The translations under genes were made by a program, and so were the position numbers. This document shows, piece by piece, positions 5,469 to 6,091 of a stretch of DNA of 12,644 nucleotides (the first letter of the stretch is position 1; each line of letters opens with the position of its first letter). Below the pieces are notes generated by a model. It saw only the letters and a list, made by a program, of their open reading frames with translations, was not told where the DNA came from and ran no database searches. This DNA comes from a virus. Taxonomy: Duplodnaviria > Heunggongvirae > Uroviricota > Caudoviricetes. The DNA lies in IMG/VR virus record IMGVR_UViG_2695420565_000020. One strand, 5' to 3'.

Positions 5469-6091
5469 GGCACGGGCTGCTGGCGCTGATTTGCTGGCTG
5501 TGTTGTGTTGTTGCCCATAGCGAAATGCTGAATGTCGAACAATCCGGGCTGTTTCGCGCCTGGTTTGTACGCATTGCACAAGAACAGCTCCGCCAGGGGC
5601 CAAGTCCACGCTGGTATCAGCAGGATTGTGCGGGCCTGGTGCGATTTGCGGCGAACGAGACGCTGAAAGTTCACGATAGTAAATGGCTAAAAAGTAACGG
5701 TTTCTCTAGCCAGTATTTGCCGCCAGAGATGACGCTAACACCTGGACAGCGTCAACTGGCGCAAAACTGGAATCAGGGGAACGGGAAAACCGGCCCCTAC
5801 GTGACCGCGATTAATTTGATTCAGTACAACAGCCAGTTTATTGGCCAGGACATAAACCAGGCGCTGCCTGGCGATATGATTTTTTTCGATCAGGGCGATG
5901 CCCAGCACTTAATGGTCTGGATGGGGCGTTACGTCATCTACCACACCGGAAGCGCCACGAAAACTGACAACGGAATGCGCGCAGTCAGTCTGCAACAACT
6001 TATGACATGGAAGTTGTATATTAAAAATTTCATTAATTATCAATATGTTAATGTGCGCCGGTCATTATTAATCAAAATAAAACCATTATGA
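5465..6091 (+). CDS. yfaT: YfaT-like protein (208 aa), recalled as DUF1175 family, predicted secreted; 3' end lies in prophage attL
   Basis: ATG at 5465 overlaps the yfaA stop (ATGA at 5465-5468); N-terminus [19 protein letters not shown] looks like a signal peptide. The ORF-track start at 5438 is GTG. The last ~25 codons run through AT-rich phage-like sequence and the stop (6089-6091) overlaps the int stop. Confidence 0.75.
5995..6085. other. attL region (core plus P-prime arm with arm-type Int-binding repeats)
   Basis: The AT-rich segment 6001-6085 ends at the int stop; ggtcattattaatcaaaataaaa (6060-6082) resembles lambda P-prime arm sites (ggtcactatcagtcaaaataaaa) and ttatcaat (6047-6054) is shared. 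Exact core coordinates cannot be fixed without the empty-site or attR sequence. Confidence 0.5.

Follow-up and report, generated by a model that had tools for sequence, protein, structure and literature searches.

A probable attL site with an HK022-type integration module within the 3′ end of yfaT in Escherichia coli

The closest described systems for the locus analyzed here are those of the lambdoid phages HK022 and lambda. The attachment locus of HK022 lies between torS and torT (PMC6814406), and Stx1a phages of O26 strains have been described at the same place (PMC10042803). For HK022 integrase (Int), it was reported that any 7-bp overlap will do as long as attP and attB agree in it, and that the requirement within each B/B′ site is limited to about 5 bp (PMC7736782). 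Phage 21 and e14, which insert in icd, and the phages that integrate into tRNA genes likewise enter a conserved gene close to its 3′ end, int lies beside the junction and the frame continues, and they restore the interrupted gene from attP. As for yfaT, it appears in two genome-wide surveys: Bobay et al. (2013; PMC3603311) count it among the conserved genes that prophages disrupt on integration, and Mageeney et al. (2020; PMC7192596) name it as a candidate case of regulated gene integrity, its Pfam domain being disrupted. MagC, to whose family YfaT belongs, is a member of the six-gene operon of the type II alpha-2-macroglobulin MagD (PMC3735191, PMC5764988). Our literature search on yfaT returned only these two surveys, and in the search, including the accessible parts of the surveys, no description of a core sequence, an overlap, an HK022-type Int or an Int allele shared with torS-torT was found for yfaT.

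The window, which is the whole stretch of 12,644 nucleotides that was analyzed, carries ubiG (minus strand), gyrA (plus strand) and yfaA (plus strand, 3732-5468) ahead of a yfaT-like open reading frame (ORF). The gene yfaA (DUF2138, PF09909) was assigned from RefSeq annotations of the matching genomes. It precedes yfaT in the operon, its stop codon overlaps the yfaT ATG, and from gene order we take it to be the counterpart of Pseudomonas magB. The yfaT frame is open on the plus strand from 5438 and, starting from the ATG at 5465, runs to a TGA at 6089-6091, thus encoding a chimeric protein of 208 aa of the DUF1175/MagC family (5465-6091). On the minus strand, int (6086-7156) encodes an HK022-type heterobivalent tyrosine integrase of 356 aa according to its Pfam domains and alignments, and xis (7134-7352), overlapping the start of int, encodes an excisionase of 72 aa (PF07825). 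As given in a preliminary description of the DNA, the yfaT frame and int run toward each other with a 6-nt convergent overlap made up of the int stop (TTA, 6086-6088) and the yfaT-frame stop. Int and xis lie directly inside the prophage from the junction. A terminator-like hairpin (GCCGCATCAATGCGGC) followed by a T-run was also observed on the minus strand at 7384-7399, just upstream of xis. The best genome matches all ended at query position 12537, so that the last ~107 nt of the window (12538-12644) lie outside them, and this end probably represents a mosaic boundary in the early region of the prophage.

The junction was located by a megablast search with window positions 5300-6400 as the query against 5,426 complete E. 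coli genomes, 5,397 of which matched. The whole query was present in 176 of the 5,426 genomes, corresponding to an occupancy of about 3%. Prophage-free genomes numbered more than 5,200, and in the unoccupied genomes among the matches listed only query positions 1-714, i.e., window 5300-6013, were aligned. The host-like sequence, which had previously been taken to end at 6001, therefore extends to 6013, and none of the prophage-free genomes among the matches listed carried the yfaT 3′ end of the window through 6091 or at all beyond 6013. A prophage-free K-12 derivative reads ...CAACTTATGACATGGAAG|GACACCCGATGG..., with its yfaT ending 24 codons further, and the window reads ...CAACTTATGACATGGAAG|TTGTATATTAAAAAT...; because the two diverge after CAACTTATGACATGGAAG, the junction was placed at 6013/6014. 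The phage DNA within the frame (6014-6091) comprises 25 codons and the stop, in line with the earlier estimate of about 25 phage-supplied codons, so that residues 1-183 of the chimeric YfaT are host-encoded and residues 184-208 come from the phage P′ arm. The GC content was 22% in 6014-6085 vs 53% in 5465-6013.

For the far end of the prophage, attR and the P arm were taken from related genomes matching the window at 99.6-99.9%, not from the window's own genome. An 11-bp exact direct repeat, TGACATGGAAG (6003-6013), was found to be common to attL, attR and the empty attB, and extending it by 5999-6002 gives a 15-bp core, CTTnTGACATGGAAG, in which only position 6002 is mismatched: the base there is the host A in attL and attB but the phage C in attR. 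A direct repeat of the junction sequence at the far end had been proposed as a check on the insertion, and TGACATGGAAG did recur there in both strain 20.1 and E2863. In strain 20.1 the two copies lay 49,756 bp apart and enclosed a complete lambda-like prophage, in which int, xis, exo, bet, gam, kil, cIII, cI/cro/cII, O/P, nin and Q were followed by the lysis, head and tail genes and then by the T3SS effector genes nleG and nleA. This prophage ended with ...TACTCTCCTTCTGACATGGAAG|GACACCCGATGG..., and beyond attR a 90-nt pseudogene annotated as 'DUF1175, missing N-terminus' was followed by yfaS (alpha-2-macroglobulin). Identical ends were observed in E2863 around a 16.9-kb remnant with IS1203 copies. 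The breakpoint in yfaT was common to many E. coli lineages and Shigella flexneri, and the occupied strains among the matches listed were mostly derived from cattle and humans, with O26, O103 and O111 included. It was also seen that the yfaT prophages decay along differing routes (extracts L002 31832-35489 and L005 5797-8132): the one in E2863 had lost most early and structural genes and carried two IS1203 copies, the one in strain 20.1 had ISEc22 within the tail-tip gene J, and nleA and nleG beside attR were kept in both.

The core region of attL begins with a host-derived core-type Int half-site, B (CAACTTA, 5996-6002, plus strand), which is colinear with the lambda and HK022 cores and forms the left arm of an inverted repeat, I3. 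It is followed by the putative 7-bp overlap (crossover) TGACATG (6003-6009), placed by gap-free alignments with lambda and HK022, and by the C′ core-type half-site GAAGTTG (6010-6016, plus strand; reverse complement CAACTTC), which spans the host/phage boundary and of which AAGTTG is identical in HK022 and lambda. The perfect inverted repeat I3 (ACAACTT/AAGTTGT, 9 nt apart) flanks the overlap, and its spacing agrees with that of the aligned half-sites of lambda and HK022. TGACATG itself aligns with lambda TTTATAC and HK022 AGGTGAA and falls wholly within the attL/attR/attB identity. The cleavage positions and the 7-bp overlap were assigned by alignment to lambda and HK022, and the mismatch between attL and attR sits at the position just 5′ of the top-strand cut so predicted, where it would be expected for an exchange starting at 6002/6003.

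On the phage side, positions 6014-6134 aligned gap-free to the P′ arms of lambda and HK022, which bore out the lambda-like P′ arm with arm-type repeats proposed earlier. Over 6060-6134, 62 of 75 positions were identical to HK022 and 56 of 75 to lambda, and the P′ arm as compared with HK022 was identical at 60 of 72. An IHF H′-like site, TATCAATATGTTA (6038-6050, plus strand), is colinear with lambda H′ and fits the IHF consensus WATCAANNNNTTR. Three arm-type Int sites, all on the plus strand, were predicted from the alignment with the two P′ arms, namely P′1 (CGGTCATTAT, 6059-6068), P′2 (TAATCAAAAT, 6069-6078) and P′3 (AAACCATTAT, 6080-6089), the last of which covers the int stop. An attP was further reconstructed by combining the P arm from the attR of a related genome with the P′ arm of the window. 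It aligned almost gap-free with lambda attP and was colinear with it, the sib/tI hairpin, P1, H1, X region, P2, H2, C-O-C′, H′ and P′1-P′3 being in register, and the sole difference from the lambda layout was found in the core, where lambda GCTTTTTTATACTAA is replaced by CCTTCTGACATGGAA.

The sequences directly establish where the junction lies, that the repeat stands at either end of the prophage and that the empty site exists, and the core repeat, the empty site and the end of host identity agree on an attL (B-O-P′) junction within the 3′ end of yfaT, which is where the preliminary description had placed it; with the insertion in yfaT, the site is not the gal-bio attachment site of lambda. 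The integrase domains, xis, the core in attL, attR and attB, the inverted half-sites and the P′ arm, as known from attL sites of the lambda/HK022 type, were all present. Taken jointly, these observations are best explained if window 5996-6089 is the attL (B-O-P′) of a lambdoid prophage with an HK022-type integration module, and we consider this reading very probable.

The integration genes were compared with those of both phages. Int contains an arm-binding domain (PF09003), a core-binding, SAM-like domain (PF02899/PF22022) and a catalytic domain (PF00589), and the catalytic residues R212, K235, H308, R311, H333 and Y342 were conserved in the alignment with lambda Int. The arm-binding residues 1-55 were 100% identical to those of lambda Int and Xis was 97% identical to lambda Xis, but Int was only 76% identical to lambda Int overall. 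It was 98% identical to HK022 Int, with eight differences, most of them in the catalytic domain; the label of a lambda-like module hence held for the likeness of the P′ arm but not for the nearest relative, which is HK022. The residues D99, P282, K283, K287 and R319 are of the HK022 type, and these five positions (99, 282, 283, 287 and 319) are presumably the determinants of lambda/HK022 specificity. The element also resembles HK022 in its overall layout, in the outer core bases CCTT...AAGTTG and in the presence of xis, and its int stop lies 72 bp from the yfaT junction, for which 73 bp was reported in HK022 (PMC6814406).

The best phage match by megablast, LC744180, was rejected as a related attP record when it was found to represent a torS-torT prophage together with host DNA on its flanks, a finding that prompted the comparison with HK022. 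Host DNA is contained in the GenBank 'complete genome' records of both LC744180 and LC744181, namely the start of torS and the region upstream of torT (extracts L003 and L011 1-330, L012 560-900), so the first ~230-245 nt of each are not phage DNA. Residues 1-355 of the window Int were identical to the Int of the Stx1a prophages LC744181-4. The placement at torS-torT was read from the ends of LC744181, which lies between torS and torT, at the attB of HK022, with attL GCACTTAAGGTGAATAAGTTG and attR CCTTTAGGTGAAAAAGGTT; LC744182-4 were matched by their Int. The DNA of the window was 100% identical to LC744181 over 6135-7180, and all differences were confined to 6003-6134, a segment that takes in the core and the P′ arm as well as the final 16 codons of int. 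The int changes in these last codons were synonymous except at the very end, where the window Int terminates with S356 (...IEIS-stop) vs D356-K357 in LC744181 (...IEIDK-stop).

The protein encoded by the interrupted gene was examined in its native and chimeric forms. YfaT is homologous to P. aeruginosa MagC (PDB 7bk8, 343 bits), on which the AlphaFold model of native YfaT superposed over 187 columns at 1.4 Å, and in this model residues 196-202 form a strand with a pLDDT of 87-90. The native tail of 24 aa that is displaced by the insertion hardly varied among 20 diverse homologues and was likewise conserved in P. aeruginosa MagC, a range spanning Enterobacteriaceae, Pseudomonas and Aeromonas, and the phage-encoded tail of 25 aa is unrelated to it. 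The chimeric tail was modeled with a pLDDT of 35-46, a low value that may partly be explained by an alignment holding almost no such tails. Against the DUF1175/MagC Pfam profile, native YfaT scored 196 bits over profile positions 20-225 vs 153 bits (153.3) over 20-202 for the chimera, in which the last 23 profile positions (203-225) are lost.

Sibling lysogens with the same crossover had tails of 25, 18 or 3 residues. The 25-residue tail was found in the window and in E2863, and the tails of E2863 and of P0001, a 208-aa protein 99% identical to the chimeric YfaT, contained R-to-W and Y-to-C changes. In strains 20.1 and 7_11_88A, a 1-nt deletion in the A-run at 6023-6027 gave a frameshifted tail of 18 residues with no int overlap, and in the Shigella flexneri sibling the tail was LHV followed by a stop (3 residues). 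As tail length varies among lysogens and the overlap is lost in some of them, the overlap of the stop codons is regarded as incidental. The protein P0002 (189 aa, tail LYIKIS) was discarded as a tail variant because it ends at a contig end, and its frameshifted tail was confirmed in complete genomes. The 1-nt deletion of 20.1 and 7_11_88A falls between C′ and H′ and alters the core-to-arm spacing by 1 bp (extract L014 1715-1835), which might impair attL function in these strains. In addition, the YfaT proteins P0091 (Cronobacter sakazakii), P0004, P0006, P0007 and P0012 had unrelated C-terminal tails with differing breakpoints, e.g., after TRWI, KDTR, ATKT or AQHL, and yfaT seems to have been interrupted repeatedly by other events or elements. 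It was also observed that YfaT residues 49-162 (encoded within window 5465-6013) gave a sub-threshold match to NlpC/P60 (PF00877, 20.8 bits with a cut-off of 23), and that the next-best PDB matches of the YfaT model after MagC were NlpC/P60-type proteins (MepS, RipD).

What directed the element to yfaT, and what it left of the gene, could each be read in more than one way. The HK022 attP core (CCTTTAGGTGAATAAGTTG) and the yfaT-type core (CCTTCTGACATGGAAGTTG) have the same outer half-site bases, CCTT and AAGTTG, and differ in the center, with the overlap AGGTGAA in HK022 and TGACATG in the yfaT element. Since the central bases differ while the outer half-sites and Int are kept, we ascribe the retargeting to the attP core, which most likely set yfaT codon 183 as the target in place of the torS-torT spacer. 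By analogy with HK022 and lambda, Int would bind attP through the arm-type sites (P′1-3, and P1/P2 of the P arm, now at attR) and the core-type half-sites, would pair attP with the 21-bp yfaT site CAACTTA-TGACATG-GAAGGAC, and would exchange strands across TGACATG. The specificity could instead reside in the Int protein as a new variant, in the way that lambda differs from HK022: the two known integrases do differ in core recognition, five residues reportedly account for this difference in the work of Dorgai et al. of 1995, and most of the eight differences between the window Int and HK022 Int fall in the catalytic domain. However, the same Int in residues 1-355, encoded by DNA identical over 6135-7180, is present at torS-torT according to the ends of LC744181, the outer bases of the core are unchanged, and the HK022 overlap can be changed freely (PMC7736782), so that such an Int variant is extremely unlikely to have set the target, although the C-terminal difference of Int may contribute to site choice. 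It had been claimed that the phage arm keeps yfaT intact, in which case the P′ arm would supply a functional 3′ end and YfaT would work in the lysogen. The chimera is of near-native length (208 aa, native 207 aa), lies far above the Pfam threshold, shares the 9-nt string aatttcatt (NFI) with the native tail, though 21 nt out of register, and has a frame that stays open through the AT-rich arm. Yet a frame of 25 codons also stayed open in 8% of composition-matched shuffles, and the idea that the open tail is statistically unusual was dropped on that ground; likewise, the tail was rejected as a degenerate duplicate of the yfaT 3′ end, there being no protein similarity and the 9-nt string being out of register. 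The replacement of a nearly invariant tail by an unrelated one, the lost profile positions, the pLDDT below 50, the substitutions in P0001 and E2863 and the frameshifted or 3-residue tails of close relatives all speak against the claim, and neither a homologous C-terminus nor a frame kept among independent lysogens was found, which makes a gene-preserving integration very unlikely. In this the element departs from phage 21/e14 and the tRNA-gene integrators, as its shared core is only 11-15 bp, its tail length and frame vary, and the native C-terminus is not returned. The tail codons (6014-6091, plus strand) are better described as unconserved read-through into the P′ arm. The integration cuts yfaT after codon 183 and leaves its conserved last 24 residues at attR as a promoterless fragment, and the upstream ORF runs on by accident into the AT-rich P′ arm to its first in-frame stop, here abutting that of int. 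Most likely the chimeric YfaT has lost its function or works less well.

The insertion puts about 50 kb between yfaA-yfaT′ and ′yfaT-yfaS-yfaQ-yfaP; it truncates a coding sequence and splits an operon, whereas the HK022 insertion replaces a promoter. A polar effect on yfaS would be expected. The phage gene nearest attR, nleA, is oriented away from yfaS. In the lysogens 20.1 and E2863, yfaS carries the annotation of an intact gene and not that of a pseudogene; expression of the downstream genes, and selection on them, may therefore persist. When attL and attR were scanned for consensus promoters and terminators, the number of sites did not exceed that in shuffled sequences, and the scans were uninformative on an outward promoter or a yfaS promoter. 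The HK022-like P′ arm might carry an outward-reading promoter like the one shown at torS, which here would be antisense into yfaT/yfaA. Under regulated gene integrity, which would be a functional layer on the attL anatomy above and not an alternative to it, the prophage would act as a reversible switch, with integration silencing yfaT and uncoupling yfaS-yfaQ-yfaP and with conditional Int/Xis excision restoring the operon. The published criterion is an attB:attL/R bit-score ratio of at least 1.1 with a conserved domain disrupted without restoration (PMC7192596), and the ratio obtained here, 196/153.3 = 1.28, exceeds this cut-off with no restoration of the domain; yfaT is also among the candidate cases in the accessible part of that survey. 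The shared breakpoint in E. coli lineages and Shigella flexneri points the same way, and with int and xis intact and the core copies identical, a precise excision that would restore yfaT and the operon appears possible. On the other hand, just ~3% of the genomes are occupied, and the decaying copies (the E2863 remnant with IS1203, and strain 20.1 with ISEc22 in J and the deletion in the P′ arm) fit a passive, slowly fixed insertion. We therefore regard a switch role of the yfaT prophage as doubtful.

The occurrence of one integrase type at two sites extends to single genomes. The chromosome of strain 7_11_88A carries two prophages, one in yfaT with the window-type int and one ahead of torS (CP074853 1781500-1785000 and CP074853 3711000-3714500), both with HK022-type int/xis, and TW08637, 06_3235 and 2013C-4187 were listed as occupied at both yfaT and torS-torT. 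Cross-talk of trans-acting Int and Xis between the yfaT and torS prophages is possible. In the proposed co-resident pair, torS-torT may hold a Stx1a-type prophage and yfaT the one with nleA/nleG, and a more far-reaching proposal, which we put forward tentatively and think rather unlikely, is that one HK022-type Int/Xis pair serves both prophages of such EHEC strains, which would then be separated only by their 7-bp overlaps. If this were true, inducing one of the prophages, whichever it is, could lead to excision of the other in trans, the yfaT (magC)/alpha-2-macroglobulin operon would come back on together with Stx-phage induction, and the pair would represent a natural case of retargeting coded by the overlap, comparable with the lambda 'saf' mutants of the laboratory and with HK022 attP variants made by engineering.

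The yfaT element adds one more member to the lambda/HK022 family, at an already catalogued site, and these findings overturn nothing in current understanding. What is mildly interesting is the identical integrase (residues 1-355) with two attP cores, sometimes in the same genome: it offers a natural case of one integrase protein tied to two chromosomal targets via a change of the attP core, and this core retargeting parallels what was engineered with HK022 Int. For annotation, the 208-aa 'DUF1175 domain-containing protein' of yfaT lysogens is a truncated fusion and not an intact YfaT, and the 90-nt 'DUF1175' pseudogene at attR is the missing YfaT end. For the biology of E. coli, the type II alpha-2-macroglobulin (mag-like) operon is split in ~3% of the complete genomes by a prophage that brings the T3SS effectors nleA and nleG.
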